Part shown: positions 36,585 to 54,046 of the stretch, in pieces
Layout of the letters: each line of letters starts with the position of its first letter
Numbering within the stretch: position 1 is the first letter of the stretch
Assembly (NCBI RefSeq): GCF_043584775.1
Contig: NZ_CP121327.1
Location: 1,394,400-1,458,399, forward strand
Direction of reading: 5' to 3'
Length of the DNA stretch: 64,000 nucleotides
Source of the DNA: Hyphobacterium sp.
GTDB lineage: Bacteria > Pseudomonadota > Alphaproteobacteria > Caulobacterales > Maricaulaceae
Made by a program: the position numbers and the translations under genes
Notes under the pieces: generated by a model
Told to the model about the DNA's origin: nothing
Databases searched by the model: none
Seen by the model: only the letters and a program-made list of their open reading frames with translations

Positions 36585-36640
<56 letters not shown>

Positions 36641-36759: not shown

Positions 36760-37269
36760 CTATTGTTGCCAAGAAAGCCGCTCGTCGCTTCCCGGTGAAA
36801 TGGCCGCAACTTCTAACCGATATCGGATGCCCGGATTTGTGGATTCGATCTCATCCGACAATTCAATGACCCAATTGGTATTCTCCAAGCCCGCTTGTGC
36901 GGCGAAAACACTGAGAACTTGAATCGCCTCGGCCTCGTTCAATGCAACGATCCGTGCATCGACAAATTCACCTTGATCGACGCCAGACTGCATCATCGTT
37001 TCCAGCAATGTGCAGGCTGAAAGACGCGCCTGCATGATGATATCAGTTCCGTGCCCTGCCCATTGTTGGACGCCATAAATACTTGGTGCAAAACAGTTCG
37101 AGCCTTCGCTGCTTAAATAGACGATATCCGGCTCATACTCGGCAGCTGTATTGATCCCTTCTTGCCGAATGATATCGAGCCATCGCTCGTCATCAGCTGC
37201 TGCCTGTGACGGAAATACGACCACCATGCTGGCAACAAGGAACCAACCGACCTTTAAAACCAAACCCAT
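36760..37269 (-). CDS. Hypothetical exported protein
   Basis: The start is taken at MGLVLKVGWFLVASMVVVFPSQAAADD (signal peptide), with GGAG 8 nt upstream of ATG 37269. It lies downstream of the RHH-TM gene. No recognisable domain. Confidence 0.6.
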   Translation of the reverse strand: MGLVLKVGWFLVASMVVVFPSQAAADDERWLDIIRQEGINTAAEYEPDIVYLSSEGSNCFAPSIYGVQQWAGHGTDIIMQARLSACTLLETMMQSGVDQGEFVDARIVALNEAEAIQVLSVFAAQAGLENTNWVIELSDEIESTNPGIRYRLEVAAISPGSDERLSWQQ

Positions 37270-37297
37270 TGCGACGCTCCATTCTGCATCCGTCCGC

Positions 37298-37969
37298 TTA
37301 TTCCTCGGCCGCAACCAGCGCGGGCCTTAAACTAATAGAGATTAATCCCGCGTCTTCGCTGCCAGTGTCCAACCTCGACAATGACCCAATTCTTGCCCGC
37401 ATCACCTGATCGAAAATCACACGCCGTTCGCTGCTCTCTTCGTCAACCAAGATGAATTGAACTGTGTAGACGAGATGCTCTCCTTCGGGGGCTTCAATGG
37501 CCGACACTGTTACCCAAAGAGCGGCATCTTCCGTATATGAAGCATCAACAAGCCCCGTTCCGAAAACGGCTTCTAACGCTGGACGAAACCGAGTGAAGCG
37601 GATGCCATTCTGCTCACCGAAATCATGGCGAATACGAGCATCCATCATGGCGCGGTTTTGTGTATCAGAGACCGCGGCGACCATCACACTGATATCAGTT
37701 TCCAATTGGGTGGCGGAAGCCTGTTGTGTTGAGTTTGAGCCGAACGCCATGAACAGAAGGGCAATCCCGACTATCATGCCTAAACCGTAGAATGGGGCAC
37801 GAGAACGCTGACGTGCGTTAATGCTGGGAGAAAGATATCCATCAATCAGTTCTCGAACGACCGCACTGGTGGACTTTCCTTCGCGCGTTGCTGCCCGCGC
37901 CAATTCCGATTTCTTGCTGGGCGAGATGCGTATTTCAACGCCTTCTGTCTTCTTATCGTCTTCGCTCAT
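37298..37969 (-). CDS. Membrane-anchored ribbon-helix-helix (CopG/MobC-like) protein with a periplasmic C-terminal domain
   Basis: The start is taken at MSEDDKKTEGVEIRISPSKKSELARAATREGKSTSAVVRELIDGYL (beta-strand plus two helices, typical RHH). A TM helix APFYGLGMIVGIALLFMAFG follows, then an unassigned domain of about 140 aa. It has the same architecture as 50828-51490. Confidence 0.6.
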   Translation of the reverse strand: MSEDDKKTEGVEIRISPSKKSELARAATREGKSTSAVVRELIDGYLSPSINARQRSRAPFYGLGMIVGIALLFMAFGSNSTQQASATQLETDISVMVAAVSDTQNRAMMDARIRHDFGEQNGIRFTRFRPALEAVFGTGLVDASYTEDAALWVTVSAIEAPEGEHLVYTVQFILVDEESSERRVIFDQVMRARIGSLSRLDTGSEDAGLISISLRPALVAAEE

Positions 37970-38194
37970 GGCCGCCCCTAAGGAATCAAAATCAGTGACT
38001 GATTGAAAACTCGTGGAAGATATCGACCTCATGCAAGGAAAACCGTGTCCCGACATTACAGGTCTGAACTAAATGCGGCCTTTAGCCGTGCCGCCAGCTA
38101 AGCCTCAGTCTCATGACTTCCGTGAATAATTCGAGGACAAGCTCAAGGAAGCCATGCGGACAGCTGACGCGAGATTGTTGAATGGATGATCGTG

Positions 38195-39118
38195 CTAGTT
38201 GACCGATTTGATCGGCATTCTTGACGAGACATTGTCTATCGCGGCATTCGCTATAGCATCTTGTAGACACTGGAATGCGGGTGCCTGCTGAAAAACGTGG
38301 TTTCTTCCAACGACGGCGACAATGGTCTCGCCGTCGGCAATCAAAGAAGATATTCGCCGGAACATGGCGACATTGCGGATATTGGACTCAACGCGGTTCG
38401 CTTCATTTATTAGGCGCCCGCCAGTTTGGCTGCCGTCCAGCATCGGATTGAACCAATCCCCCGGAATCTGACTGAATTCAAGGCCCGGCCAAACATCTTG
38501 GAAGTGTTCTTGATATTCGTCGAATGCCGCAATGGGCATAGGCCAACCCCACGCCTCGCCACGACTTTGCAGGCTTGAAATATACCGATCTGACCGTTCG
38601 GTCAGCTGTGTTCCATTAATTCTTTGTCGAACCCAACCGCGCACCCGTCGCGTGATCAAATACATCTGATAATCAAGGGCTGAAATCTTGTTCAATACCT
38701 CCGCCCAAAGATCGGGCTCGCTTGGTTCCAATGTTCCCGTCGGAATGCCGAGCGAACTTGCCAATGATTGAGTATAACCCGGCTCAAAATACCGCTGCAC
38801 GGCTTCTCTCAAGTTCGCGGTGTTCGGCCATGAATAGCCTTCGTGCAAAACGATATCTGGCTGGTCGTCTTCAATAGCGGATTGTATGGCGATCAATTGC
38901 GGGTCGTCAGGATCATTCGTATGTGCCGCACCAATGTAAATTAGTTCGGCGCCGTTGCTGAACGACAGGTTTAGCTCAGAATCTACAAAGTCGACTTCGT
39001 CTTCGCGCAATAATGCGACACGGTCTGCGCATGTTTCAATGATTGCGGCGATCTGTTGCGATTGAGATTCGAAGTCCGGCGGTGCGGCTAAAGCAAGTAA
39101 TGCCAGTGCAAAATTCAA
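38195..39118 (-). CDS. Exported protein, Tiki/TraB/GumN/ChaN-superfamily-like
   Basis: 307-aa ORF. It has two GxxH-type motifs (LIYIGAAHTND ... IVAVVGRNHV) with an intervening DIVLHEG, the pattern I associate with the TraB/Tiki/erythromycin-esterase superfamily. The N-terminus is short and hydrophobic. Confidence 0.4.
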   Translation of the reverse strand: MNFALALLALAAPPDFESQSQQIAAIIETCADRVALLREDEVDFVDSELNLSFSNGAELIYIGAAHTNDPDDPQLIAIQSAIEDDQPDIVLHEGYSWPNTANLREAVQRYFEPGYTQSLASSLGIPTGTLEPSEPDLWAEVLNKISALDYQMYLITRRVRGWVRQRINGTQLTERSDRYISSLQSRGEAWGWPMPIAAFDEYQEHFQDVWPGLEFSQIPGDWFNPMLDGSQTGGRLINEANRVESNIRNVAMFRRISSLIADGETIVAVVGRNHVFQQAPAFQCLQDAIANAAIDNVSSRMPIKSVN

Positions 39119-39190
39119 AGCATCCTCCGCTTGCCAAACAAAGCGCGGAAAGTCTCTATTGCTACCCCTTGGGACATGAAGCGCATATAA

Positions 39191-39925
39191 TTATGGCCTT
39201 TCCCAATCACACGAGCCCGCATCATCAACACCGCCACCGTGGACAAACTGGTTCCTTCTTCCGGTCGCCGCAAAGATGCGTTCTTCCCGTTCAGCTTCCC
39301 ATGGTGAGACCGGATCGTTTGCAGACCATTCTACAAACATGTCCCACTCATCGTCTGGAATGCGAACGCCGTGGGTGTCGTGCATGTAGAACCAAACGCG
39401 TGCGACATCGCCTCGATGGCACGGCGGCGGTTCAAACCTGCCTCGGTCGTCTTCAATCTGGCAGGAACCGTAATCGCTCGTTTCGTCTGGAAGGTCAGCG
39501 TAACGATCATTGCTGCGGTGTTGGTTCACCTGACCGATAGACGGAGCAAGATTATGAAGGTCGAAGATCATGGCCTGAGCGTTGGCATTCTCTTGTTCAC
39601 AACGACCGCGACTTCCATCCGGTCCGGCCCAGCACGCCCATTGCCTCGCCGGCATCAGTGAAGCTGGGACAATGTGCTCCCATTCAACTCGTTGAGCACG
39701 AGATGAAGCATTGTTTCCACTATCGTATCCGCAGGCATCAAGATCATCGATGGAACCTGATCCATCATTGTCTTCGTGGGATGTATATGAGCATCCGCAA
39801 TAGAACGTCGAACGATGTTCGGCCGTGTAGATGACATCGTCGGCTTCGTTCTTCGTGTCAGCCCAGTCTTGAGCAAACGCGCTGAATGGAAGCAGCAGAA
39901 GAAACAGAGCTAGGGACCGGATCAT
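39191..39925 (-). CDS. endA: Extracellular/periplasmic endonuclease I (EndA/Vvn family)
   Basis: Signal peptide MIRSLALFLLLLPFSAFAQD. Family motifs are present: TFYCGC, VEWEHIVPAS, DLHNLAPSIGQVNQHRSN, RGDVARVWFYM and REERIFAATGRRNQFV. Confidence 0.9.
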   Translation of the reverse strand: MIRSLALFLLLLPFSAFAQDWADTKNEADDVIYTAEHRSTFYCGCSYTSHEDNDGSGSIDDLDACGYDSGNNASSRAQRVEWEHIVPASLMPARQWACWAGPDGSRGRCEQENANAQAMIFDLHNLAPSIGQVNQHRSNDRYADLPDETSDYGSCQIEDDRGRFEPPPCHRGDVARVWFYMHDTHGVRIPDDEWDMFVEWSANDPVSPWEAEREERIFAATGRRNQFVHGGGVDDAGSCDWERP

Positions 39926-39977
39926 GAGCTCGTGATAACCGTGCCGATTGGGGAATATGGCAGTGTCATTGAAACCT

Positions 39978-41327
39978 TCACTCCGCAGACATCAGTATAT
40001 CAGGACGACGAATGAGCCGATCGGGAAGCTGAATGTCGACGCGATACCGGCCCGGCGGAAGAAGAAGCTGAACCTGATCCGCTGCTTCGCCTTCTTGTAA
40101 CGCATACTGGTCGGTCGCGATTGCGTTTACCACCATAGGCAAACGAAACGCTTGAACCACTGCCGGCCGATCCGAAACATCTGAAACATCAACCCAAGCC
40201 GATCGCCGATCTGGCAACTCCCACAACCATCGGGGTCGGCGATCATTTTCTCTAGCACCCTCGGTCGGGGTAAACACTACAAGGTCTGCCTGCCAACGGT
40301 CAGGCGGCGGCGCCAATGCTTGGTCATTTTGGTCTATCAGCACGCTTGGCTCGCTGAACTCGAAGCGATCTGAAATTAGTCTGGCGGACTGTGCAATACT
40401 GGTGGTCCCGATCCCGGCGCCGCTAACTTGATCTATCGTTAAAGGGTCATATCCAGTTAATTCCGAAAGCGCTGCCGCCATCCAGCCATTCTGATAACCA
40501 TCCGCAGATCGACCGGGCGTTTCGTCGAGGTGCGCAAGTCCTACATACAAGACAACACGCGCATCCGGATTTTGAGCAAAGACACGTTCAAAGATATTTT
40601 GGGCTTGGACGGTTTCGCGATGATTTATCCGAGCCTCGCGAGAGCAAGATTGAGTCGAACAGTCGAGTCTTTGATCGCTGCGCACCTCATATGGAAACCA
40701 CACAAATTGTTCGGCCACTGCGGTTTCGAGCAAATGGGCCATCATGGGGTCGCCAAAATAGAATCCCATTTCCCGAACAGGCACGCCGTTTTGATTCCAT
40801 GCCGTTTCGGAAATTTGCGAGAGTGCTTCCATGCCAAAATGCGTGAAGCCCTCGGCTCTAAGGATCGGCAGCAATTCTGCCATAAATGCTCGATGACGCC
40901 CCATTTGGTGGGATTCATTGACGATCACGACCTGCCTGCCTCGAACGGCTTCCTGAATGTATTCGATGGCGTTTGCTGCACGATAGCCTTCAAGCGCCTC
41001 TGGGGTGACCCATACTTCGTCGTCGGCTGAAATCTCCCGGTTTTCCGAAAACATTTCTGGGGCGATGATGAAATACGCCTCGTCATACCGGCCAGTGAAA
41101 TTCAAAAGCTGCGCTTCGCCATCTCTGAGAAATTGCTCTGCGAAATCGTCCGGCAATCCGTCGGGCAATACTTCTGACTGAATTGCAGCTGCGTATTCAC
41201 CTTGTGCAGCATAGCTCGTCCAAGGACGAGCAACGGCCTCTCCTTCATCTTGTGCTGACGTCAATCCGCCACCAAAGACGGTGAGCACAGCGACAAAAAT
41301 ATGCTTCATTGAAAACAATTGATGCAT
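39978..41327 (-). CDS. Exported protein with a ChaN-like (haem-binding/Tiki superfamily) domain
   Basis: A signal peptide is present (possible start at MKHIFVAVLTVFGGGLTSAQ, 41309). VVIVNESHQMGRHRAFMAELLPILRAEGFTHFGMEAL and VVLYVGLAHLDE match the ChaN/Cofac_haem_bdg pattern as I recall it. Confidence 0.45.
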   Translation of the reverse strand: MHQLFSMKHIFVAVLTVFGGGLTSAQDEGEAVARPWTSYAAQGEYAAAIQSEVLPDGLPDDFAEQFLRDGEAQLLNFTGRYDEAYFIIAPEMFSENREISADDEVWVTPEALEGYRAANAIEYIQEAVRGRQVVIVNESHQMGRHRAFMAELLPILRAEGFTHFGMEALSQISETAWNQNGVPVREMGFYFGDPMMAHLLETAVAEQFVWFPYEVRSDQRLDCSTQSCSREARINHRETVQAQNIFERVFAQNPDARVVLYVGLAHLDETPGRSADGYQNGWMAAALSELTGYDPLTIDQVSGAGIGTTSIAQSARLISDRFEFSEPSVLIDQNDQALAPPPDRWQADLVVFTPTEGARENDRRPRWLWELPDRRSAWVDVSDVSDRPAVVQAFRLPMVVNAIATDQYALQEGEAADQVQLLLPPGRYRVDIQLPDRLIRRPDILMSAE

Positions 41328-41477
41328 GGAACCCTCTCCCCATTCCGTCCAGCCTCGATTCTCTGCGGAGGTGAAATCGTCAGCTAGTAAACAACTACAG
41401 CCAAATTAACTGCGACCAAAGGTGGTGGGGATGTTAGAGTCGCCGATGGCAAAAATAAGGCGCCCAAATAGACCAAG

Positions 41478-41576
41478 CCCTATTGAGGCTTTGCAGGCGG
41501 TCTTAATCTGGCGTCACTAGAATTGCATCATCCCTATTGAAGCCTGTGCCGCACAATGTCCTGACCCTATTGAGGC
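41478..41576 (+). repeat. Three direct copies of the 12-mer CCCTATTGA(G/A)GC in the AT-rich intergenic region upstream of the DUF3644-like gene
   Basis: Copies lie at 41478-41489, 41532-41543 (one mismatch) and 41565-41576. The last copy ends 67 nt before the ATG at 41643. Confidence 0.8.
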
Positions 41577-41642
41577 CTACTCGCTGGCGTAAAATTCTAG
41601 AATCCTTACTATCGCCGAAGTTGATAGGCGAATGGGATTAAA

Positions 41643-42830
41643 ATGGCAAAGCCACGCGCGACCCTTGAACGAGCAGAAATTGCTATCGTGAAGGCGATGG
41701 TGAAAACCAAGAAGTATAATGATCAGCAAATTCTTGCGTTTTTCACCCGACCAACTCGCTCCATCAATCATCGCGTTATCGGTGAAATTCGCAGTAATAC
41801 GAAGTATGCCAATATCAAAGCTGCGTCAGAGTCACAGTTGGATCAGTTTCTTGATCGATGGCCGGACGTTGATCCAGAAACCGGATTAAGTAATAGCGGC
41901 GATGAACTGTTGATCAAAGCTCGTGAGGCGATGATAGCGGCTGTCCATATATTCAACGGTGCTGGGCTCACGTTCCGCTCAGAACTGTTCATCGTGACCG
42001 CAGTGATTGCATGGACCTACCTCTGCCATTCTTGGTTCAATAAGCACGGTATTGATTATCGCCATCGCGATACCAAAGGAAACGTCGTTAAGACCGCGGA
42101 AGGCGCCGAAAAGTACTGGGAGCTAAGCCAGTGTTTGAAACATGGTGACCTACCTATTTCCGAGGGCGGCAAGATAAATCTCCGGTTTCTGTTGGAACTT
42201 CGACATGAAATCGAACACCGTTCAACCTCGGCCATCGACGACAGCGTTGGAGCCCAATTGCAGGCTTGCTGCATCAATTTCAATAACTTCATCCGTGAAG
42301 AGTTTGGCAGACAATTCGGCTTGGAAAAGCGACTTCCCATCGCGCTCCAGTTCGTGACTTTTGATAACCGACAGCGTGCTGAACTGATATCGGCTGATCT
42401 ACCAGCCAATATATCGTCAATGTTGGAAACCTTTCGGAACAAGCTGACGCAGGAACAATTTGCTGATCTTGACTATGCCTACAGAGTGATTTTCGTACCC
42501 AAAATCGCCAACAGCAAAAGCAAAGCCGATGTTGCCGTTGAATTCGTTAAAGCGGACTCGCAAGAGGCAATCGATGCAAATGCTGTCTTCTTGAAAGAAA
42601 CCGACAAGAAGAGATATTTACCGTCAGCTGTTGTGAAACTGATGCAAGACGAAGGTTATTCGAAATTCAAAATGCATGACCACACCGAACTTTGGCAGTC
42701 GCTTGATGCAAGAAACCCGGCAAAAGCATTTGGAACACAAGGTGACTACAAAGGCTCTTGGGTTTGGTACGAGAATTGGGTTGAGCGGGTTCGTGCCCAT
42801 TGTGAAGAAAACGCCGAGCAATATCGATGA
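41643..42830 (+). CDS. DUF3644-like hypothetical protein (AT-rich orphan)
   Basis: 395-aa ORF. The segment ELLIKAREAMIAAVHIFNGAGLTFRSELFIVTAVIAWTYLCHSW resembles the DUF3644 core as I remember it. This is the most AT-rich gene in the island. Confidence 0.4.
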   Translation: MAKPRATLERAEIAIVKAMVKTKKYNDQQILAFFTRPTRSINHRVIGEIRSNTKYANIKAASESQLDQFLDRWPDVDPETGLSNSGDELLIKAREAMIAAVHIFNGAGLTFRSELFIVTAVIAWTYLCHSWFNKHGIDYRHRDTKGNVVKTAEGAEKYWELSQCLKHGDLPISEGGKINLRFLLELRHEIEHRSTSAIDDSVGAQLQACCINFNNFIREEFGRQFGLEKRLPIALQFVTFDNRQRAELISADLPANISSMLETFRNKLTQEQFADLDYAYRVIFVPKIANSKSKADVAVEFVKADSQEAIDANAVFLKETDKKRYLPSAVVKLMQDEGYSKFKMHDHTELWQSLDARNPAKAFGTQGDYKGSWVWYENWVERVRAHCEENAEQYR

Positions 42831-42897
42831 AAACGGATATCCTGCACCGCATTTAGTTGCAGAAATTCATTGGGCGCCCCATCTGCAATTTCCCAGC

Positions 42898-43534
42898 ATG
42901 ATGGAGCCCCACCATAATCATCGGATACGCACGAACATCGACATCTGACCAAACCGCAGGCCTCGAAGCCCAGATCACAGAACTGACCAAAGCTGGCGCC
43001 GATCGCATCTTTCAGGAACAGGTTTCCAGCGTCACCAAGCGGGACGAACTGGAAGCGGCCCTTGATTATCTTCGTGATGACGACGTGCTTATGGTCACCA
43101 AACTTGATCGTCTTGCCCGGTCTGTTTCTGACCTTATGAGGGTCATCGAACGTATCAAAAACCGAAACGCATCATTGCGTATTCTTGCCATGAATTTGGA
43201 TACTGAATCTGCCACCGGGAAGCTGATGATCTCGATCCTTGGATCAGTGGCTGAATTCGAAAGAGAGATCATGCTGGAACGTCAGCGTGAAGGCATTTCA
43301 AAAGCCAAGGCCGCCGGAAAATACAAAGGTCGTGCCCCAACCGCCCGACATAAGGCTGAACAGGTTTTGGGTTTGATTGGAAAGGGTTGGAAGCAGGCGG
43401 ATGTTGCAGTCGAATTGGGGATATCTCGGTCCAGCGTTCAGCGGATCGTCCGCAATGATATAGAAAACGGCCGTGAAGATGACCGCGGCGGTGGCCTCAC
43501 TCTTCCGGGAGTCGCGAACTATGGGAATAAATGA
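42898..43534 (+). pseudogene. Serine recombinase (resolvase/invertase family) with a frameshift at its extreme 5' end
   Basis: The frame open from 42902 encodes ..PTIIIGYARTSTSDQTAGLEAQITELTKAGADRIFQEQVSS...DVLMVTKLDRLARS...AEFEREIMLERQREGI and a C-terminal HTH (LGISRSSVQRIV). This frame has no start codon. ATGATG at 42898-42903 is in the adjacent frame, and removing one C from the C4 run at 42907-42910 would give MMEPTIIIGYARTSTSDQ. The ORF track starts only at the internal GTG 43085, which would lack the catalytic Ser. Confidence 0.75.
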
Positions 43535-44024
43535 TCATTCGGCGATCCGCTTCGATTTCTCTCACATACAGCGACACAACAAGTCGAAATACGTCTTCAT
43601 CTCCCGCAGGCGATAACCGGCTGCCGCCAATCTGTATGACCAGAATATATCCGCCTTCAAGATAGAGAGCCGATGGTGGGCTGAATTGGACGTCATACCT
43701 CCCGCCGCCTTCGCACAAGCTTTCGAACCAAGCTGTGTTTCCGCCTAGCTGCCTTGCACTGTCCGTCGGAAAGCCAACGATCCATGCGTCATTGTTGACC
43801 ACCTGTTCAAACAACACCGCATCACATTCGTTCAGTGCCAGTTGATACGTGTTCAGGAGACCCAAGGCTCCGGGAATATTCGATTCGATGAATGCGGCGG
43901 TCTGACTATCCGGGTCTGGGAGTGATTGAGAAAAAACAGGAGCCGAGACAACGGCATTGCCCAGCATGACCAATATCGTTGGCAAACTAAGCCTTAACAT
44001 CAATGCGGAGCTTAATTCGGACAT
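43497..44024 (-). CDS. Hypothetical exported protein (possible NTF2/SnoaL-like fold)
   Basis: 175-aa ORF with an N-terminal hydrophobic signal-like segment (LSLPTILVMLGNAVVSAPVFSQ). Its 3' end overlaps the recombinase 3' end convergently by 38 nt. The fold guess rests only on size and pattern. Confidence 0.5.
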   Translation of the reverse strand: MSELSSALMLRLSLPTILVMLGNAVVSAPVFSQSLPDPDSQTAAFIESNIPGALGLLNTYQLALNECDAVLFEQVVNNDAWIVGFPTDSARQLGGNTAWFESLCEGGGRYDVQFSPPSALYLEGGYILVIQIGGSRLSPAGDEDVFRLVVSLYVREIEADRRMIIYSHSSRLPEE

Positions 44025-44968
44025 TGGGGCGCATCAGGCCCTGTGTAGGCTTCGGCGATTGTGGCAAGTCCTACACTAATTCGCCGATCATCAATGTGAT
44101 CAGGGTCTTCGTATTCGAGGATATTGATCTCGCCGTCTTGGCATCGCCAATGTGTTCCATAGCGCTGAGGCTGATCATTGTTGAGCAAAATCCGGTCAAC
44201 CAATCGTGCCAACAATCTCGGCTGGGCCCGTCCTTCTGCGACTTCATTCTCCAACATGGGAAGAAATGCTTCTTGTCGTTCTAGACTTCCATGTTGAAGA
44301 ATTAGCCATGCCGCATCAATTGCTGCATTCGGAGCCTCATCCAAAGCCGGCCAACCGTGTTCTTCAACAAACGCGTCCAAATACACGCCATTGGATTCGT
44401 CTGCCTCACACCATCGAAACGCTACCGCTTGCCAAATGTATTGAAACAACTCCGGGTTCTCTTCGACGAATTGAGGCTGATCTTGGCGTCGAACTCGCCG
44501 CCACCATTGATCAGACTCCAACCGCATAACCAATTCCCGATAAATATTACTCTCGGCAATATCCGCAACGGCTTCTTCTTGTGCCTGTAACAAGCGAAGG
44601 TCTTGCTCCATCATCCAACCTCTGCCCTGTTCCAACAGCGGTCGATAGTCAGCTAGTTCCTGATTACGTGTCGCCAGTATTCCACCCGCCGAAAAGCCTC
44701 TTGCGATACACGGCAACACACCTGACGGGATGGGGTCTCCGGGTTGATATCCCGCCTCTCTCGCCGGCGCTCGAAAACTGGCCCAAAGTTCAGCACTCGA
44801 TGAAACAACCTCTGGGTTTTGCATGGCTAGAATGTATGGGGACCAATCTGCCAAGACGGGATCGATCTGTCTGGATTCAATCCCGTTCAATAGTGCCAAA
44901 GCATCTTCAACATTGTCGGCCCAAGCAGTGCCAGAAATAAAAAGAATCCAGATGATCAAAATACGCAT
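44012..44968 (-). CDS. Exported protein, member 1 of a three-member island paralog family (possibly DUF6624-like)
   Basis: Signal peptide MRILIIWILFISGTAWA. The C-terminal block HGWPALDEAPNAAIDAAWLILQHGSLERQEAFLPML...LVDRILLNNDQPQRYGTHWRC...IDDRRISVGLATIAEAY aligns with 47891-48556 and 49916-50689. Confidence 0.6.
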   Translation of the reverse strand: MRILIIWILFISGTAWADNVEDALALLNGIESRQIDPVLADWSPYILAMQNPEVVSSSAELWASFRAPAREAGYQPGDPIPSGVLPCIARGFSAGGILATRNQELADYRPLLEQGRGWMMEQDLRLLQAQEEAVADIAESNIYRELVMRLESDQWWRRVRRQDQPQFVEENPELFQYIWQAVAFRWCEADESNGVYLDAFVEEHGWPALDEAPNAAIDAAWLILQHGSLERQEAFLPMLENEVAEGRAQPRLLARLVDRILLNNDQPQRYGTHWRCQDGEINILEYEDPDHIDDRRISVGLATIAEAYTGPDAPQCPN

Positions 44969-45194
44969 CGCGTGCCCCTGAGATATTGGCTCTGCGCGTA
45001 TTCAAAACCCGCCGCCCCCATAATTCAACTCGAAATTTAATTGAGTTGGTTCCGATGCGGGTTGCAACGTGCAGGTGGTTTCAGCCACGTTGTTTTGCAT
45101 GAAAGGTCGATACGTTCGGCGCGCTGACCTGCGCCCATAGTGGCCTCGTATATATTGCGAATCTGACCAGTGAAGCTGCGGTGTTTTTGACTCT

Positions 45195-45647
45195 CTATCT
45201 AAGCGCAGAGAGATGGCTGTGCTGGATGAGCATTGTTCCGGTATCATCTGGCGCAATGATCAACGTTACGCGCAAATTGTTTGGTGTGAGTTGACCTTCT
45301 GTGGAGATCATGTCGCCTAAGAAAACAGCCGCAATCGTGTGAACTTGGTTAAACGCCCAATGACGGTTGATTGTGACTTCGAAATTGAATGTCGTGCCGT
45401 TCTCGCAGAACGAACGAAACTGATTGATTGCTCCGGCTTTGTCAGCGCTTAGTTGGCCATGAACTCCAAAGCCAGCCCACTCTTCTGACGTAATTTCATC
45501 TAGCAACTCAGCGCTACATTGCTCGAAAACCTGTTCAAACTGGGCAAGCCACTCAAGTGCGGATGATCTGTCGCTCGGCTCCTGTGCGCTGGCAGCAGAA
45601 GCAATGCTCAAACAAACCGCGAGTTTCAGCATCTGCATCCTAGGCAT
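45195..45647 (-). CDS. Hypothetical exported protein (possible NTF2/SnoaL-like fold)
   Basis: Signal peptide MPRMQMLKLAVCLSIASAASAQ. 150 aa. It overlaps the upstream small membrane ORF by 8 nt. Confidence 0.5.
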   Translation of the reverse strand: MPRMQMLKLAVCLSIASAASAQEPSDRSSALEWLAQFEQVFEQCSAELLDEITSEEWAGFGVHGQLSADKAGAINQFRSFCENGTTFNFEVTINRHWAFNQVHTIAAVFLGDMISTEGQLTPNNLRVTLIIAPDDTGTMLIQHSHLSALR

Positions 45648-45870
45648 TGCGATCCATCTTCGTTGTGCTTTCGGCGGCCTGCCAGATTGTCATGGCAGTA
45701 ATAACTAATGCCACAACCAGCATTGAAAACGCAGCAGCGGCCCAGCCTGCAACAATCTCCCCTGTAGCAAGCCAACTGAATGCGGTCATAGTCAAAAAAG
45801 CCAATGCAAGCATCCAAAAGATAATGGCAGAAAAACGCAATCCACCGATCATTTTTATGATAGCCCTCAT
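45640..45870 (-). CDS. Small 2-TM membrane protein
   Basis: 76-aa ORF MRAIIKMIGGLRFSAIIFWMLALAFLTMTAFSWLATGEIVAGWAAAAFSMLVVALVITAMTIW. It is translationally coupled to 45195-45647. Confidence 0.45.
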   Translation of the reverse strand: MRAIIKMIGGLRFSAIIFWMLALAFLTMTAFSWLATGEIVAGWAAAAFSMLVVALVITAMTIWQAAESTTKMDRNA

Positions 45871-46063
45871 GCATACTCCAATGCTGTCGTATGTGGCACC
45901 GACCTACACGAGTGACAGCTTAAGTTTGAAGCGCCCCACCCTGCAAGCAGTGGTGTGGTCATGATAGCTGCGCCTAGGCAATTTCCTTTTACCCCCTCTG
46001 CTCGATGGTGGGAGTTGATATTTACAATTCGGACAAGGTCGAATTCGGGAAGCCAAATTCCAA

Positions 46064-46609
46064 TTAGCTAATCGCTCGATATAACGTCGACCGGGACACC
46101 CCCAACTGATCCGCAATCGACTGCATCGAGTGACCACCAGAAGATTTCAACTTCTTGGCCATCTGAATCTGATTGTCGGTCAATGCAACGGGACGCCCCA
46201 ACCGTATTCCTTTTGCCTTCGCATTTGCCAGACCGGAACGAGTGCGTTCACCGATTAGTGCCCGCTCATATTCAGCCAGCGCCCCAAATACATGGAACAC
46301 CAACCTTCCCCCAGCAGTAGTCGTGTTGATATCTTCTGTGAGTGAAATGAAACCGACATTCTGATCACCCAGATGATCCACGGTTTCAATCAGTTGTCGG
46401 AGGGAGCGCGCAAGCCGGTCCATTTTCCAGACCACCAGCACATCACCTTCACGGAGGTATTTCAGGGCTTCTAGAAGCTTCGGCCGATCACGCTGGGCAC
46501 CTGATGCAGATTCTTCGAAGATCATCTGACAGCCTGCTTCTTTCAAAGCGGCAATCTGCATCTCGTTTGATTGATCTTCGGTGCTTACCCGGGCGTAACC
46601 GACCTTCAT
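46064..46609 (-). CDS. Small serine recombinase (resolvase / Hin-Gin-type DNA invertase family), apparently intact
   Basis: The start is taken at MKVGYARVSTEDQSNEMQIAALKEAGCQMIFEESASGAQRDRPKLLEALKYLREGDVLVVWKMDRLARS. It continues GALAEYERALIGERTRSGL and ends with the HTH IADQLGVSRSTLYRAIS. About 181 aa. Confidence 0.9.
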   Translation of the reverse strand: MKVGYARVSTEDQSNEMQIAALKEAGCQMIFEESASGAQRDRPKLLEALKYLREGDVLVVWKMDRLARSLRQLIETVDHLGDQNVGFISLTEDINTTTAGGRLVFHVFGALAEYERALIGERTRSGLANAKAKGIRLGRPVALTDNQIQMAKKLKSSGGHSMQSIADQLGVSRSTLYRAIS

Positions 46610-46617
46610 GAATTCTC

Positions 46618-46683
46618 CTGTGCCAAAAACGGCTTCTGCAAATGGTGACACAGTTTGGAATTTCAAGAGGGTTTTTGACACAG
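46618..46683. promoter_or_regulatory. Candidate recombinase-binding (res/hix-like) or operator region immediately upstream of the serine recombinase
   Basis: A 13-bp inverted repeat CTGTGCCAAAAAC (46618-46630) / GTTTTTGACACAG (46671-46683) matches at 12 of 13 positions and has a 40-bp spacer. An extra direct TGACACAG lies at 46646-46653. The region starts 9 nt from the recombinase ATG. The half-site resembles the Hin hix half-site TTATCAAAAACC as I recall it. Confidence 0.4.
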
Positions 46684-46897
46684 CGAATGGATTGATATCC
46701 GATCCCCCGGTGGTCACTAGATGGTCGTGTCAGTTACGGTCGTTTTTGGGCCGCCGGTTTTTTGTGTCCAAATGGATTTTCACATTCGAACTTGCCGCAA
46801 CTGATATTGATTCACATCAATTTTGTGAAAATGCTTCTCATTCTTTCAAGTATTTCCGTTTTTCGCCGATTTATTTGAAAAATCGCCCTGCTCTCGT

Positions 46898-46927
46898 TTG
46901 ACGCTCCTGTCTTTGCGGGCCTAACAT
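46898..46927 (+). promoter_or_regulatory. Possible sigma70-type promoter for the Tat-repeat peptide gene
   Basis: TTGACG (46898-46903), then 18 nt, then TAACAT (46922-46927), about 60 nt upstream of the ATG at 46989. Pattern match only. Confidence 0.3.
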
Positions 46928-46988
46928 CCGCTTGCGAGGTATTCGGCCTTCGGGCTGACAGGCAAAAAAATCAGGGAGGCCCACTCAC

Positions 46989-47327
46989 ATGGCCAAAAAA
47001 GGTAAACTCAGCCGTCGTTCTTTTCTAACTCGCGTTGCTGGAACGACGCTAGCGGCAGGCGCCGCAGCTAGCATTACAGGTGTTGCTCTCGCTCAGAACA
47101 GAACCGGACGGACCGATTCCGACACCGGCAACAGTGCCGACCGCGCTGGTTATGGTAGAACCGGCGTTACCGACAGCGATACCGGCGGCAATTCTGACCG
47201 TGCCGGCTATGGCCGGGGAAGTTCTGTGGATCGTACCGGCTCAGGGCGCAACTGCTCGGACAGCGACTCAGGCAGCTATGCTGACCGTGCCGGCTATGGC
47301 CGTCGCTGCAACGATTCCGATCGCTAA
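46989..47327 (+). CDS. Tat-signal small secreted protein with Asp/Ser/Gly repeats
   Basis: GGGAGG lies 9 nt upstream of the ATG. The twin-arginine signal is MAKKGKLSRRSFLTRVAGTTLAAGAAASITGVALA. The mature part of about 77 aa contains three copies of [TC]DSD[TS]G-x2-3-DRAGYGR plus a degenerate copy, and two Cys residues. Confidence 0.7.
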   Translation: MAKKGKLSRRSFLTRVAGTTLAAGAAASITGVALAQNRTGRTDSDTGNSADRAGYGRTGVTDSDTGGNSDRAGYGRGSSVDRTGSGRNCSDSDSGSYADRAGYGRRCNDSDR

Positions 47328-47397
47328 TTTTTCTGGTCTCGGCGGCTAGTCCTCCGAACCAATCTTGTAGAGAAACCGGTCGTTTTTGACCAAGTGA

Positions 47398-47829
47398 CTA
47401 TTCGCCTTGATCTTTTGACCGAGCAGGAGGATCGCCCTCTTTACGTACTCCCATCGCTATCAGACGTCGCCTTAGTCCAGTGGGGTGACCATGAGTGCGT
47501 TGATATTCGGCTTCACGCTGCCGTCTGCTTTCCGTTCGCGACGTAGACTCTAAGCCCATGAGTCTGACGCGGATCAAATTCTCTATCGGTTCAATCAGCA
47601 GGACTTGTCCGCCATCAGTGAAAAAAGCGCCCCCAAACAGGAGCGGAAGTAACAATGCCGTCACCCAAGGCAGGTCCATGTAAAGGCGCAGAAATGCAAT
47701 GACACAAAAACTAATAAGCGAGCCTAGAACGCAGGCTATGACAAACGCGAAGAATAATGCGGCGCTTGCTCGTTTTTGCCATTCAACGCCGTCTTTGGGC
47801 ACAGTACCCTTGTCCTCTTGATTGTGCAT
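47398..47829 (-). CDS. Hypothetical membrane protein with a basic C-terminal tail
   Basis: 143-aa ORF with two or three hydrophobic helices (AALFFAFVIACVLGSLISFCVIAFL; WVTALLLPLLFGGAFF), followed by an Arg/Glu-rich cytoplasmic tail. Confidence 0.5.
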   Translation of the reverse strand: MHNQEDKGTVPKDGVEWQKRASAALFFAFVIACVLGSLISFCVIAFLRLYMDLPWVTALLLPLLFGGAFFTDGGQVLLIEPIENLIRVRLMGLESTSRTESRRQREAEYQRTHGHPTGLRRRLIAMGVRKEGDPPARSKDQGE

Positions 47830-47890
47830 GATCAGCTCAACCCTCGGCCGGGCAAGGCCATGAATTCAAGACTGCCGGGAACCCGTAATT

Positions 47891-48556
47891 TTAGCGACAT
47901 CGGTTTTCTGTGATTCTAGTTGTATATTGACCTATCGACCCGAGGCCAATTTCGGCCCTCCGATTGTCTACATTGTCACGGTCGACAATCGGAAACGGGA
48001 CGAAAACACCTTCATCGCAACGACCTTGCGATCCATAGAGTTGTTCGCCTTGTGTCCGCCAATGCACGCGGTCAACAAAAAGGGCATACTGTTGAGGCGA
48101 TAACACGTTGGCCGAAAACAACCCGTCAATGACCTCCATGCCATTCTGAGCGAGCCATACCTGATTATGATGGTGTTGCATCAGCAGCCAAATGCCGACG
48201 CCAACATCACTCGAAATGTAACCCGCGTTGGGCGCAATCAAATCGCCGCAATTTTCAATAATCTGTTGAACCAGTTCGTCGTGGGCCATGCTGACGTGAT
48301 AAGCTGCGTTATCGGTATATAATGTCAGCCTCTCTCCAAGCGGGGGATTTCCGATTCCGGGTGACCAATTTCGCCTAAGCAATTGGTCAACTTCGGCAGC
48401 AGCAAGCACCTGTTCGAACCTATTTTCACAAAGGACTATCCGGTCTCGTTCAACTTCATCAGCCTTTTCTGGCGCCAGAGCTGTTTCAGCGACGGTCGCT
48501 TGCATGCTGGCCAACACGATAATCCAAACAATGCTTGGCATGTCCCATACTTTCAA
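47891..48556 (-). CDS. Exported protein, member 2 of the island paralog family (possibly DUF6624-like)
   Basis: Signal-like N-terminus MKVWDMPSIVWIIVLASMQATVA. The C-terminal block GIWLLMQHHHNQVWLAQNGMEVI...FVDRVHWRTQGEQLYGSQGRC...VDNRRAEIGLGSIGQY is shared with the other two members. Confidence 0.6.
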   Translation of the reverse strand: MKVWDMPSIVWIIVLASMQATVAETALAPEKADEVERDRIVLCENRFEQVLAAAEVDQLLRRNWSPGIGNPPLGERLTLYTDNAAYHVSMAHDELVQQIIENCGDLIAPNAGYISSDVGVGIWLLMQHHHNQVWLAQNGMEVIDGLFSANVLSPQQYALFVDRVHWRTQGEQLYGSQGRCDEGVFVPFPIVDRDNVDNRRAEIGLGSIGQYTTRITENRCR

Positions 48557-48742
48557 TCTGCTCGTAAACTAAAAACCGACCTAACGCGCTTCCGGTTACA
48601 TCAGGCGCAAGACCGGACCTTTTGCGTTGAACGAAGGCAATTCACACCACCACCCTTATAGTTGAGTTGCTCCCAAAACTTCGCAATAGTTGCAAGCTAT
48701 TTTGAACACAACGGCCGTATCCACATAACCGCAGGGGCAATA

Positions 48743-49885
48743 ATGATTGAAAATGCGTTGATCGCTATCGGTTTCGTGATGGCATTGGATGGCGCCGTCG
48801 AATGTCCGGAATCGGAGTCCTATTGCATTCTCGACACCGAAATCCCGGCGGAAGTCCTCGCGGAGCAACTCCAAGGGTTGGATGAAACCTATTGGGTAGA
48901 AGGCAACACACTATTTGCGGCTGCTAGGCGGGAAAGTGAAAGTGTATTTTTTTGCTGTGCGGTTCAAACGTCTATGCGGCGGGCCGGCGATAGCGATTAT
49001 TGGTATGTAGCAGTCGAAGTGCCACGGATCAGCGAAGCCATTCTTGATATTTTTCCAATACCGTTTGATTTGCCCGGGCGCCGCCAGCCATTCCAACCAT
49101 TAGAATACTGGGGGCCTGATGCACCCCCGCGTGTAGATCGAAATCCGGTTACAGAAATCCACGTCACCGACCAAGCGATAGATAGCGAATCTCTAAACGC
49201 GATCCGTCAAATTTCAATCTACGAACCGCCTGAACTTGCTGGTTCTGAAAATCATCCGGTAGTTTTTTTGGCTGATGGGCAAGGCACAGGCGTTTTTGCA
49301 GCAATTGCCCAGTCCCTTATAGAGGCTTGCCGAATTGAACCGGTCCTTCTCGTCGGCCTCTGGCATGGGAATGTTGAAGGCGAACATTATCCCGGAAATG
49401 CTTCTGACCCAAGAAGTCATGACTATCTCTGGGGTGTCGATGGCGGTCATTTCGAACAATACGAGGCTTTCTTCTTGAACGACGTAATGCCGCTAGTCGA
49501 ACGACGGTATAATGCCAGCGATGAGCCCAGTCGTAGGGCGCTGTTTGGCAATTCAAGTGGCGGGGCATGGGCATTATCCACCGGCCTCAGAAATCCTGAA
49601 ACATTTGGCACAATTGCAGCAGCATCAACGGTATGGCGGCGATCTATCAATGCAGCACCCCCGACCGAAGGCCCACGCTACATTTTCACGACCGGGCTCC
49701 TTGACCAACGTGCACAAACTGCGTTGGACGATATTATGACCGGCTTTGCCGAGACCGGAGCTGACCATGAATCCCGCACATTGGTTGCTGGCCATTCTCC
49801 ACTCGTTGCGTATCGAGCCTTCGCTGATTTGCTTTTGAGTGAGTTTCCTGCCGCCGAGGATGCTGGTTGCGGGCCCGATGAATGA
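48743..49885 (+). CDS. Alpha/beta-hydrolase esterase, enterochelin-esterase (Fes/IroE)-like
   Basis: The start is taken at ATG 48743 (AGGGG 7 nt upstream). The nucleophile elbow is LFGNSSGGAWAL (GxSxG). The N-terminal beta-rich domain (YWYVAVEVPRISEAILDIFPIPF) and the overall layout resemble the putative-esterase/enterochelin-esterase family. Confidence 0.55.
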   Translation: MIENALIAIGFVMALDGAVECPESESYCILDTEIPAEVLAEQLQGLDETYWVEGNTLFAAARRESESVFFCCAVQTSMRRAGDSDYWYVAVEVPRISEAILDIFPIPFDLPGRRQPFQPLEYWGPDAPPRVDRNPVTEIHVTDQAIDSESLNAIRQISIYEPPELAGSENHPVVFLADGQGTGVFAAIAQSLIEACRIEPVLLVGLWHGNVEGEHYPGNASDPRSHDYLWGVDGGHFEQYEAFFLNDVMPLVERRYNASDEPSRRALFGNSSGGAWALSTGLRNPETFGTIAAASTVWRRSINAAPPTEGPRYIFTTGLLDQRAQTALDDIMTGFAETGADHESRTLVAGHSPLVAYRAFADLLLSEFPAAEDAGCGPDE

Positions 49886-49915
49886 AGTCCTCCCCTTAAC
49901 GCATTCGAGCAATCA

Positions 49916-50689
49916 TTGATGATAATCTCGTTTCTAATCGCGGCATTCACCGCTTCGTCTGATTGCCCTCTCGAAATACCGAGCATCTCGGCTGTTCAAA
50001 CCGATGAAAGCCATCAAGATTTGGTAGAGGCCTATCATGAGGACTTAGTCGAACGGCTAAGGCATCTTGAATCTCCAACGGAAGAGCCGACGAATGCGTG
50101 GGAGTATTTCCTATCGGCCGACCAAACAACCGCGGACGAGCGAGCCAGTTGCCTTTTGAACCTTGTTTCGCACGACATGTATATCCGATTGGAATTGGGG
50201 CGACTTGGACAGGAAGCGGCACCAGAAGACGAACGTCGCCAGTACATGATCAGCGCCTCACGCACGATGGCAGCGATAGATCAACGAAACCGGGAGTGGC
50301 TGCGTGGCCAAGTCGAAAATCATGGTTGGTTTTCCATCAGCGGGTTTGGTGAAGACGCTGACCAAGCCGCTTTTCTGATCGTTCAACACGCGGACGGTGA
50401 CATCGCATTCCAACAAGAGATGCTCGATTTGCTATTGCCGCTGGCGGCGTCAGGCGAGACAAGTGTCATCGGCTTCTCCTACTTGATGGACCGCGTGGCC
50501 GTGAATACCGGCGAGCGACAACTTTATGGGACACAAGGTTGGTGTACTGGTCCCAATAGTTGGGAGCCACGCGAGTACGAAGGATCGAGGCAAGATGTTG
50601 ATGGACGACGACAGGCTATCGGTCTTCAACCGCTAGAAAACTACATCTCTCACATTGCCCAAAATTGCACTACTGATCAGCGATACTGA
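49916..50689 (+). CDS. Exported protein, member 3 of the island paralog family (possibly DUF6624-like)
   Basis: The N-terminus is hydrophobic (MMIISFLIAAFTASSDC, possibly a lipobox). The block HGWFSISGFGEDADQAAFLIVQHADGDIAFQQEML...LMDRVAVNTGERQLYGTQGWC...VDGRRQAIGLQPLENY is shared with the other two members. Confidence 0.6.
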   Translation: MMIISFLIAAFTASSDCPLEIPSISAVQTDESHQDLVEAYHEDLVERLRHLESPTEEPTNAWEYFLSADQTTADERASCLLNLVSHDMYIRLELGRLGQEAAPEDERRQYMISASRTMAAIDQRNREWLRGQVENHGWFSISGFGEDADQAAFLIVQHADGDIAFQQEMLDLLLPLAASGETSVIGFSYLMDRVAVNTGERQLYGTQGWCTGPNSWEPREYEGSRQDVDGRRQAIGLQPLENYISHIAQNCTTDQRY

Positions 50690-50827
50690 GCAGCCAGAAT
50701 CATCGTTGATGGCTCTCGCATGGATCAAAATTCCAGTGCCCGGACACGATTCTTCTTGGCCCTGACATGGTTTTAGTGGCGCCATGTTCAGAACAGGCGA
50801 GCCTCGATTCGATTGGCGAGTTACCTA

Positions 50828-51490
50828 ATGAAAGAAAAGCCAAAGCCGGAAAAGAAATCGGAGTCCTTGGAGATCAGGGTAGCACCACATGAAAAGGCTG
50901 CCTTTCTACAAGCATGCCGAAATTTGGGCCTCACAGCTAGCAACGTTCTTCGTCAATCAATGCGGGCATTTGTCCTGCGCCAAACCAACCTTCTTCCTCG
51001 AAAAGGGATAGCGATGATCACAACAGCTTTGATCGGAGTCTTCGGATGGGTAATGCTTGGCTCGTATCAGGCGGGCGCAGCCCCAATTAATACGGATGTC
51101 GATTTACAATTTCATTACGTCGATGAAAGCGGAACTCTATCTCGCCGCCGAATGTCGGCGCAATTGGATATGGAGTTGGGGGAAACCGTTTCGATGTATG
51201 TGAACGATGACGGCCCTTTATCGATTGCCAGTTTTTTTGATGCGCCAGAATCTATGGAGGGCTCACGTATCCGTATCGATCTCACCGCAAGGGCCGCATC
51301 TGTCGATGATCAAGTGACTTATAATGCGATCCTTCGTCTGATAGGCGCCGATGGAGAATTTGTTGGTGAACCTATCGAACCTGAGCTGACAGTAAAATAT
51401 GGGTCACAAGCCGAAATTGTCATCGGGTTTGAAGTCTTTGGCGCATCTGATGAGATGTTGGAAATCAGCCTCCAGCCGAATGTCAGATAA
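50828..51490 (+). CDS. Membrane-anchored ribbon-helix-helix protein, second copy of the architecture
   Basis: MKEKPKPEKKSESLEIRVAPHEKAAFLQACRNLGLTASNVLRQSMRAFV forms the RHH. It is followed by the TM helix IAMITTALIGVFGWVMLGSY and a periplasmic domain of about 145 aa ending LEISLQPNVR (compare LISISLRPAL in 37298-37969). Confidence 0.6.
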   Translation: MKEKPKPEKKSESLEIRVAPHEKAAFLQACRNLGLTASNVLRQSMRAFVLRQTNLLPRKGIAMITTALIGVFGWVMLGSYQAGAAPINTDVDLQFHYVDESGTLSRRRMSAQLDMELGETVSMYVNDDGPLSIASFFDAPESMEGSRIRIDLTARAASVDDQVTYNAILRLIGADGEFVGEPIEPELTVKYGSQAEIVIGFEVFGASDEMLEISLQPNVR

Positions 51491-51974: not shown

Positions 51975-52181
51975 CAAAATTCTCCTTCCCTCTATTTAGG
52001 GCCGGTCGCCATTTGAGTGTTCCCGAGGCCTCTAGAATGCCTCTGAGTGGCCAATTCTCTCGGTTAATCGGGGGAAGTATGAACGCCTCGATGCGGAAAA
52101 TCGTACAAAGCTAGTAGAGCCAAAGTGCAAAAAAATGGGCCGGAACTTTCATTCCGACCCTCTAGATATTGATGGGAGCCA

Positions 52182-53963: not shown

Positions 53964-54046
<83 letters not shown>

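Follow-up and report, generated by a model that had tools for sequence, protein, structure and literature searches.

A tRNA-Asp-integrated genomic island of Hyphobacterium sp. with a mosaic cargo rich in exported proteins

Genomic islands that are integrated at tRNA genes and carry a mosaic of accessory and defence genes are the described elements closest to the island analysed here, which occupies 17.3 kb (positions 36641-53963) at a tRNA-Asp gene of a Hyphobacterium sp. chromosome. We studied the island and the cargo inside it within a window of 64,000 nucleotides, the whole stretch of contig NZ_CP121327.1 under analysis, to which all positions refer unless another locus is named. The island shares with these elements the integration at a tRNA 3′ end, a direct repeat, a low G+C content, a presumed integrase beside the tRNA gene, decay mediated by an insertion sequence (IS), additional serine recombinases and a variable defence slot (PDC-S19/ApeA). 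It differs from them in being unusually rich in Sec/Tat-exported soluble proteins (11 of its 19 open reading frames, ORFs) and in that obscure families were captured repeatedly and independently, DUF6624 three times and the Tiki superfamily twice. The cargo is a further and somewhat unusual example of this mosaic type, made up of under-studied families; its RefSeq proteins (WP_394694715-24) are without exception labelled "hypothetical" or "DUF". We favour, with a probability of roughly 0.6, a reading of this cargo as a mosaic flexible secretome, i.e., a collection of small, separately exchangeable modules that would encode mostly extracytoplasmic hydrolases and would not form one machine. As the evidence stands, this makes the island an unusual yet explicable piece of flexible genome.

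DUF6624 (PF20329) is frequent in graspetide groups 18, 20, 23 and 42 (Carter et al. 2026, PMC13097080), and members of a secreted "cluster 23" family have been predicted to serve graspetide clusters as auxiliary extracellular enzymes (Makarova et al. 2022, PMC8939145). We take "cluster 23" to be DUF6624, since its supplementary alignment (PMC8939145) displays GW..QH..DR..Q.YGTQ..RR..GL, the same motif set as that of DUF6624. Graspetide loci also hold Tiki/TraB proteins, erythromycin-esterase-like proteins and alpha/beta hydrolases, for which roles in maturation or resistance have been suggested (PMC8939145). The DUF6624 proteins of the island agree with those of graspetide clusters (PMC8939145, PMC13097080) in Pfam family, motifs and signal peptides, and the subfamily of one of them, g17, occurs inside a graspetide-type cluster. 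The island differs in lacking an ATP-grasp maturase, a precursor and a C39 exporter, and in carrying three divergent orphan copies, one of which is paired with an esterase.

The Tiki/TraB-PrgY/ChaN/erythromycin-esterase/RRSP superfamily is approached by two cargo proteins, g03 and g05, through the fold of g05, the homologue matches of both and their invariant His/Glu/Arg sets. Both proteins themselves fall below the Pfam thresholds, and in g05 helices are added at the N-terminus and a beta domain at the C-terminus. Unlike ChaN, which has its receptor gene, and PrgY, which has its pheromone plasmid, g03 and g05 are not accompanied by these partners. Endonuclease I (EndA, Vvn, Dns) is matched by g04 in its PF04231 domain, signal peptide, eight cysteines and EWEH and N..RSN motifs; the differences are that g04 lies on a mobile island and that recombination in sibling islands is concentrated at its 3′ end. 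Finally, single-pass transmembrane transcription regulators constitute a widespread known class (PMC10269533). The products of g02 and g18 resemble its ToxR/CadC/TcpP-type members (PMC10269533) in combining a putative cytoplasmic DNA-binding domain, one transmembrane (TM) segment and a periplasmic domain. Instead of a winged helix, however, they have a putative ribbon-helix-helix (RHH) for DNA binding, matched below threshold, and their periplasmic domains belong to no known family; a search of 5.8e9 proteins gave no more than three homologue clusters for g02.

Borders, export bias and mosaic structure

A direct repeat of 56 bp, identical at 36585-36640 and 53964-54019, borders the island. Its right-hand copy forms the 3′ half of the tRNA-Asp gene; the match extends to 64 nt at 97%. 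The G+C content is 0.48-0.54 across the block versus ~0.60 in its flanks. These tRNA 3′-end repeats, the atypical composition and the presumed integrase fragment identify a tRNA-Asp-integrated genomic island. An IS3-family element with a two-ORF transposase (orfA 53231-53497, orfB 52320-53528) is located between the cargo and the tRNA. It sits within the presumed integrase gene, of which ~350 bp of the 3′ end are left beside tRNA-Asp. This insertion, by truncating the presumed integrase, probably immobilised the island, which would be unable to excise by itself if the integrase remnant is read correctly.

Nineteen island ORFs were defined (g01-g19; Table 1), with coordinates that agree with those of the initial annotation. 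By a home-made hydrophobicity and cleavage heuristic, signal-peptide-like N-termini are present in g01, g03 (weak), g04, g05, g08, g09, g10, g15, g16 (from Met28) and g17, and the Tat motif SRRSFL of g13 brings the export-type N-termini to 11 of 19. Four more ORFs encode TM proteins according to the same heuristic, g02 and g18 with a single pass and g11 and g14 with two passes. Outside the island only 2 of 45 ORFs are flagged, one of which is a spurious ORF over tRNA genes (Fisher p ~6e-6). The export bias of the cargo, which had been noticed before, is therefore real, while the lipobox N-termini claimed along with it were not recovered, as no convincing lipobox was found among the island ORFs.

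Sibling islands were recovered from metagenome contigs (L001/L002, L096/L097, L100 and L008). L001/L002 keep g01 (90%), g02 (94%), the endonuclease I gene g04 (87%), g10 (76%), g08 (42-47%), g12 (82%), the esterase gene g16 (81%), the DUF6624 gene g17 (72%) and g19 (39%), and they are without g03, g05, g06, g09 and g13-g15. In L001 the esterase is again followed directly by DUF6624, and the counterpart of g18 has the RHH part in common (50%) with a different C-terminal domain. An ApeA/HEPN gene lies beside the L001 resolvase (L001 6188-7708); since PDC-S19 is found in the Hyphobacterium island, the resolvase neighbourhood seems to act as a defence-gene slot. In L096/L097, the order g09-g10-g11-g12 is present, and elsewhere g05, an N-terminal fragment of endonuclease I and a fourth DUF6624 type are followed by g02. 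L100 contains g05, endonuclease I, an 1147-residue S8 peptidase, a duplicated endonuclease I 3′ end and then g02-g01 (g01 80%), and L008 contains a decayed g12, a DUF6624 gene and g11-g10. Across these contigs, the orthologues of g10 are 76-86% identical (L001, L097, L008), those of g12 82-85% (L001, L097) and those of g04 87-93% (L001, L100), and g11 has homologues in L001, L008 and L097.

The exchange of single genes is most clearly delimited around g03. Its 1.1-kb cassette (38064-39189; limits set by blastn against L001 and L100) is unique to this island and sits, at the DNA level, between the endonuclease I stop codon and conserved sequence upstream of g02. At this same position, at the endonuclease I 3′ end upstream of g02, L100 has the S8 protease and L097 the fourth DUF6624. 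Block identities between the islands range from 42 to 99%, which marks them as recombinant mosaics. The small units that persist are g02-g01, g12-g11-g10 and esterase-DUF6624-RHH/TM, and endonuclease I is a further module common to sibling islands.

Two arrangements in the siblings were also observed. In L100 (1241-5846), the S8 peptidase is flanked by a full endonuclease I gene (95% DNA identity to the window) and by a second copy of its last 223 bp (83% identity), an arrangement that marks a recombination junction of two island lineages. In L001, a 30-bp remnant (1266-1295) is identical to the tRNA-Asp attachment (att) repeat; since the L001 integrase adjoins tRNA-Arg (19537-19613), this remnant suggests that L001 is a composite or relocated island.

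Beyond the siblings, linkage was not found. A genome-wide scan yielded 80 DUF6624 loci from many phyla, of which we considered the neighbours within ±10 kb. Neither tblastn nor hidden Markov models of the g03, g05 and g08/g10 families detected any other island family at these loci, and clustering of the neighbours gave no recurrent partner. Two families that did recur, histidine kinases at 12 loci and beta-lactamase-like proteins at 7, were rejected as partners, being abundant and found at varying distances. Chromosomal homologues of g05 (64% and 57% identity) stand alone among housekeeping genes. The modules of the island share no common operator-like motif upstream, the 10-mers that they have in common being no commoner than in shuffles. 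At the family level, the cargo thus has no conserved co-occurrence in other genomes. The initial annotation had proposed one coherent functional module and had named a lack of such co-occurrence as an outcome that would refute it. The proposal is supported in part, by the recurring families and by the synteny of part of the cargo in sibling islands. A single system is not supported, given this lack of linkage, the missing operator motif and the single-gene cassettes swapped among siblings.

Other mechanisms of exchange or switching were considered. Phase variation by a serine recombinase was rejected, as no convincing inverted repeats surround the promoters. An inverted 15-nt pair (GGTGGTCACTnGATG) flanking g12 (46124-46138/46709-46723) is at chance level, 20 of 100 shuffles reaching 2 matches. 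Integron-like cassette sites were not found either, no common motif being present at the 13 homology breakpoints.

In the mosaic secretome that we favour, the island would have inserted at the tRNA-Asp 3′ end, and the IS3-family insertion would later have truncated the integrase. Six modules may be distinguished. The first would be g05-g04-g03, three Sec-exported putative hydrolases (Tiki/ChaN-fold, endonuclease I and TraB-like), and the second g02-g01, a membrane-tethered RHH protein with its exported partner. The third, g12-g11-g10-(g09)-g08, would combine a serine recombinase with small exported or membrane proteins and DUF6624, and the fourth, g13-g15, a Tat repeat peptide, a TM protein and DUF6624. 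The fifth, g16-g17-g18, would join the esterase, DUF6624 and the second RHH/TM protein, and the sixth would be the cytoplasmic defence-gene slot, filled by PDC-S19 here and by ApeA in one of the siblings. Either in the periplasm or extracellularly, the exported enzymes would most likely act independently of each other, with DNA, esters and peptides as their targets. The analysis shows the borders of the island, the families of its proteins, the export signals, the mosaic structure and the missing linkage at family level; the operon structure, the regulator role and the substrates are what we infer, as is the benefit, be it nutrient scavenging or protection.

Several points weigh against this reading. 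Three DUF6624, two Tiki, two g08/g10 and two RHH/TM proteins in 19 ORFs are far from random, and such repeated families suggest selection for a common theme that independent modules leave unexplained. Since gene order is kept across sibling islands, as in esterase-DUF6624-RHH/TM and g02-g01, some sub-modules may be true functional units. Additionally, only about five sibling islands are available, all from close relatives, the promoter and terminator scans gave results at chance level, and the predicted signal peptides come from a heuristic and not from a trained predictor. The island is an example of how a small integrative element of marine Maricaulales-type bacteria has gathered, again and again, secreted proteins of the same few uncharacterised families.

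Table 1. Features of the tRNA-Asp island and its borders (positions in the window)
Feature	Position	Strand	Description	Basis
Left att repeat	36585..36640	.	56-bp copy of the tRNA-Asp 3′ half	Exact 56-nt match to 53964-54019
g01	36760..37314	-	Exported 184-residue protein, directly downstream of and overlapping g02	Signal-peptide-like N-terminus
g02	37298..37969	-	RHH, single TM and periplasmic domain; candidate transmembrane regulator	RefSeq start, 223 residues
g03	38195..39118	-	Divergent TraB/PrgY/GumN putative hydrolase	Homologue matches to PF01963
g04	39191..39925	-	Exported endonuclease I	PF04231, 96.3 bits (cut-off 25)
g05	39978..41327	-	Exported Tiki/ChaN/EreA-fold putative hydrolase with C-terminal beta domain	Foldseek and homologue matches
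g06	41643..42830	+	DUF3644 cytoplasmic protein, PADLOC candidate defence gene PDC-S19	PF12358 E 2e-51; PDC-S19 E 2e-113
g07	43085..43534	+	5′-truncated serine recombinase remnant	Resolvase model positions 66-145 only
g08	43497..44024	-	Small exported protein, g10 paralogue	BLASTP E 2e-4 to g10
g09	44012..44968	-	Exported DUF6624, 318 residues	PF20329, 36.7 bits; signal peptide
g10	45195..45647	-	Small exported protein, g08 paralogue	BLASTP E 2e-4 to g08
g11	45640..45870	-	76-residue two-TM protein, travels with g10 and g12	TM heuristic
g12	46064..46717	-	Intact serine recombinase, resolvase/invertase type	PF00239 E 1e-44 and HTH_7
g13	46989..47327	+	Tat-signal peptide, three ~19-residue D/S/T/G-rich repeats	SRRSFL and TIGR01409
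g14	47398..47829	-	143-residue two-TM protein, no family match	TM heuristic
g15	47891..48556	-	Exported DUF6624, 221 residues	PF20329, 36.9 bits; signal peptide
g16	48743..49885	+	Exported alpha/beta esterase with N-terminal extra domain	PF00756, 65.6 bits (cut-off 22); start = Met28 of long ORF
g17	49916..50689	+	Exported DUF6624, 256-257 residues, four conserved Cys	PF20329, 61.1 bits
g18	50813..51490	+	Second protein with RHH, single TM and periplasmic domain	RHH_9 and RelB E 0.0065
g19	51558..51977	-	Cytoplasmic, 139 residues, probably island backbone	39% homologue adjoining HTH_17 (AlpA-type) gene in L001
IS3-family element	52291..53558	-	Insertion sequence	rve/HTH_21 transposase; 16-bp perfect terminal inverted repeats
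Integrase remnant	53559..53906	+	Presumed integrase C-terminal remnant	ORF 53490-53906; position between IS and tRNA, and reading of the sequence
tRNA-Asp	53964..54046	-	tRNA-Asp (53970-54046) with right att repeat	ARAGORN and repeat

Exported hydrolases and membrane-tethered regulators

The exported enzymes could also be read as a nutrient-harvesting module in a surface-attached marine oligotroph, in which the nuclease, the esterase and the Tiki-like hydrolases, joined in a sibling by the S8 protease, would degrade DNA, esters and proteins with the two membrane-tethered RHH sensors as a switch. We regard this as unlikely.

The endonuclease I, g04, is an intact exported nuclease, as had been proposed. 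In addition to its Pfam domain, it matches NF011716 (E 5e-43, 148 bits, under the 372-bit equivalog cut-off), its clear signal peptide ends in FSAFA, and its catalytic motifs are readable. The esterase g16 keeps a GxSxG nucleophile motif, GNSSG, which is also kept in its L001 orthologue. Among PDB sequences, feruloyl esterases come closest to it (E 1e-5), and a weak match to a fungal siderophore-degrading esterase was also found. The enterochelin esterase model NF007758 matched with 33 bits versus a cut-off of 222, over residues 272-323 only. The earlier description of g16 as Fes/IroE-like was thus right as to an esterase and too specific as to its kind. Metagenome scans with this esterase as the query returned no relatives.

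Two Tiki/ChaN/TraB-like proteins had been described as a duplicated set. Both g03 and g05 do belong to the superfamily, g05 by fold and g03 by homologue matches, but they are two different families and were rejected as paralogues, having no BLAST similarity and an hhalign probability of 5.7%. The score of g03 against PF01963 is 13.7 bits (E 0.057; threshold 26.8 bits). Among its 425 representative homologues, 15 of 51 match PF01963 (best 2.9e-6), and one matches erythromycin esterase. The family has invariant H65, E92, R247 and G270, and H273 is near-invariant. The score of g05 against PF04187 (ChaN), 13.1 bits, is below the 27.7-bit threshold; it has 41 homologues, and 12 of the 31 included in the alignment and scan match PF04187 at E<=0.01. 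In an AlphaFold2 (AF2) model of g05 (pLDDT 89.3), the added N-terminal helices and C-terminal beta domain are present, and Foldseek aligned it with RRSP (3e-6), HopBA1 (3e-4), ChaN 2g5g (6e-4; TM-score 0.52 normalised to target) and EreC (2e-3), PMT being also matched. The g05 family keeps N136, E137, H139, R145, E166, H265 and E268 invariant, which suggests, as far as conserved residues can tell, that g05 is an enzyme rather than a passive binder. The superfamily-type His/Glu/Arg residues kept by g03 and g05 are consistent with nutrient harvesting, as is the S8 peptidase that L100 carries at the g03-cassette position, between endonuclease I and g02.

The proposed switch consists of g02 and g18, which had been called two RHH-TM proteins. 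They are indeed paralogous (BLASTP E 5e-7), with one TM segment each (residues 87-105 of the long ORF in g02 and residues 65-83 in g18). The RHH matches, to RHH_1 and a NikA-like model in the case of g02, are under the cut-offs (16.8 versus 23.4 bits and 14.1 versus 20.5 bits). Both proteins adjoin exported partners, which also fits nutrient harvesting. ToxR is followed by ToxS, as g02 is followed by the exported g01, a protein with no Pfam or NCBIfam match. The g02 protein probably acts like the ToxR/CadC-type proteins, with sensing in the periplasm and DNA binding at the membrane; the assignment of g02 and g18 as putative regulators comes from sequence features.

Against nutrient harvesting stands the lack of any uptake system, as the Pfam scans of the island ORFs found no TonB-dependent receptor and no siderophore, haem or peptide ATP-binding cassette (ABC) uptake genes. 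In addition, the modules have no common operator motif, the families do not co-occur beyond this island family, and no degradative role is known for DUF6624 or for g01/g08/g10.

DUF6624 proteins and graspetide clusters

The three-member family with a common motif that was recognised in the initial annotation is DUF6624, since 3 of 3 copies exceed the PF20329 gathering cut-off of 27 bits. The GW / QH / DR / Q.YG.Q / RR..GL motifs are present in g09, g15 and g17 alike, and Q157, H158, D192, Q202, G205 and R232 are invariant in 23 sequences that include the three. The copies were thought to be internally duplicated. Their mutual identity is only 28-32%, they rank 54th-90th in one another's hit lists (~90 family members), and each resembles homologues of other phyla more than it does the other two on the island, which rules out duplication in situ; they are among one another's most distant relatives. 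Orthologues of individual copies are found elsewhere, with 90% identity for g09 in L097 and 72% for g17 in L001. To judge from these comparisons, DUF6624 was captured repeatedly and independently, which is itself a non-random pattern.

At least 48 of 68 family members have a signal peptide by a crude rule. DUF6624 has no sequence relative in the PDB, and the AF2 model of g17 (pLDDT 92.5), all-alpha with a small hairpin, has no fold match in the PDB or BFVD. DUF6624 represents widespread predicted extracellular enzymes without a solved structure, a detectable fold relative or a known activity. The island offers a compact natural test set for the family, with three paralogues of which one is paired with an esterase, and its main value lies in this test bed and in the lead to a possible cross-linked-peptide link.

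This link was examined as a second alternative. The island could be a defence island with an extracytoplasmic arm, whose exported DUF6624, Tiki/EreA-like and alpha/beta hydrolases would serve as a counter-measure or processing kit for graspetides and further foreign molecules by cleaving or neutralising the ester- or isopeptide-linked peptides of competitors, while endonuclease I and PDC-S19 would protect the cell from foreign DNA and phage. We consider this quite unlikely. It is favoured by the occurrence of DUF6624 in the graspetide groups listed above (PMC13097080), by the "cluster 23" motifs, by the similar set of hydrolases in graspetide loci with their possible resistance role (PMC8939145) and by the defence genes in the variable slot of the islands. 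Additionally, when the sibling islands are set aside, the protein most similar to g17 (48%) is encoded in locus L004, directly after an ATP-grasp maturase.

The L004 locus (5379-10765) is a complete-looking graspetide-type cluster, with a C39 ABC exporter, HlyD, a candidate precursor with a leader ending in ..VSGG and an ATP-grasp maturase matching TIGR04187 (E 9e-43). It is carried on a conjugative element with ArdA, KlcB and a type IV secretion system coupling protein.

The evidence against a counter-graspetide function comes from the island itself and from the family at large. No graspetide maturase was found in the window by tblastn with the L004 query, and no island ORF has such a Pfam match; no precursor or C39 exporter was found in the island or window, and the sole ABC match in the window (4891-5544) is far from the island. 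An ATP-grasp neighbour is present in only 3 of more than 80 DUF6624 loci, and these loci never include genes of the g03 or g05 families. No biochemical activity is known for DUF6624, and the three literature associations are separate observations and not one tested pathway. A related version, in which a mobile kit without a synthetase, controlled by the periplasm-sensing RHH/TM regulators, would degrade, process or neutralise graspetides and other peptides with ester or isopeptide cross-links made by neighbours, is a long shot of slightly lower standing. If it were true, DUF6624 would have a function for the first time, and defence islands would have an extracytoplasmic arm. Should the connection with graspetide biology hold, the island would lead to enzymes able to counteract or reshape peptide natural products of a large class.

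Hyphobacterium chromosomes also contain an extra DUF6624 gene (L005/L006/L009/L010, ~10001-10774), 42-43% identical to g17 and embedded in a flagellar cluster with flgF/G/A/H/I and fliX.

Small exported proteins and remaining cargo

The two small exported proteins g08 and g10 had been described as possibly NTF2-like. They are indeed a distant pair, and a five-sequence alignment of the family is consistent, showing a conserved pair of Cys and, at the C-terminus, SHxS. The NTF2-like assignment is only hinted at by sub-threshold matches to Lumazine_bd_2 (0.014) and SnoaL_3 (0.038), each in one of five members, and no PDB sequence match was found for either protein.

With its recombinases and several divergent copies of small exported proteins, the mobile element resembles an orphan-immunity array. 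The island could accordingly be pictured as an effector/immunity set, in which endonuclease I and the hydrolases would be toxins and the small exported DUF6624, g01, g08 and g10 orphan immunity proteins; the independent acquisition of the DUF6624 copies would fit this picture. This explanation, one of two suggested earlier that lack their defining partner genes and are rated lowest, is very unlikely. General Pfam, NCBIfam and PADLOC scans of the island ORFs revealed no type VI secretion system, polymorphic-toxin delivery or toxin-domain markers, and no PAAR, VgrG, Rhs, LXG or CdiA in any of them. In addition, the DUF6624 residues Q157, H158, D192, Q202 and R232, invariant across phyla, look more like those of an enzyme or ligand site than like those of an immunity protein that evolves fast, and endonuclease I has an ordinary Sec signal peptide. 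The other, iron or haem scavenging by a ChaN-like haem-binding protein and a Fes/IroE-like siderophore esterase, is the least probable of all: the ChaN fold of g05, the matches of its homologues to the haem-binding ChaN model and the weak siderophore-esterase matches of g16 are outweighed by the absence of TonB-dependent receptors, siderophore/haem ABC transporters and a Fur-type regulator in the Pfam scans of the island, by the hydrolases (RRSP, HopBA1, EreC) that are the best fold matches of g05 and its enzyme-like invariant Glu/His/Arg, by the feruloyl esterases nearest to g16 and its low enterochelin-esterase score, and by the lack of linkage between g05 and g16 in sibling islands.

As for the remaining cargo, the PDC-S19 match of g06 spans residues 87-394. 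The Tat repeat peptide reported earlier, g13, is supported by its SRRSFL motif at residue 8 and by a TIGR01409 score of 16.7 bits, equal to the cut-off, and no family match was found for it. Since g13 is identical in two ENA contigs and has no RefSeq accession, it appears to be unannotated in RefSeq. A 44-nt repeat is present three times in its gene, and the three repeats of the protein are TDSDxG..xDRAGYGR-like units.

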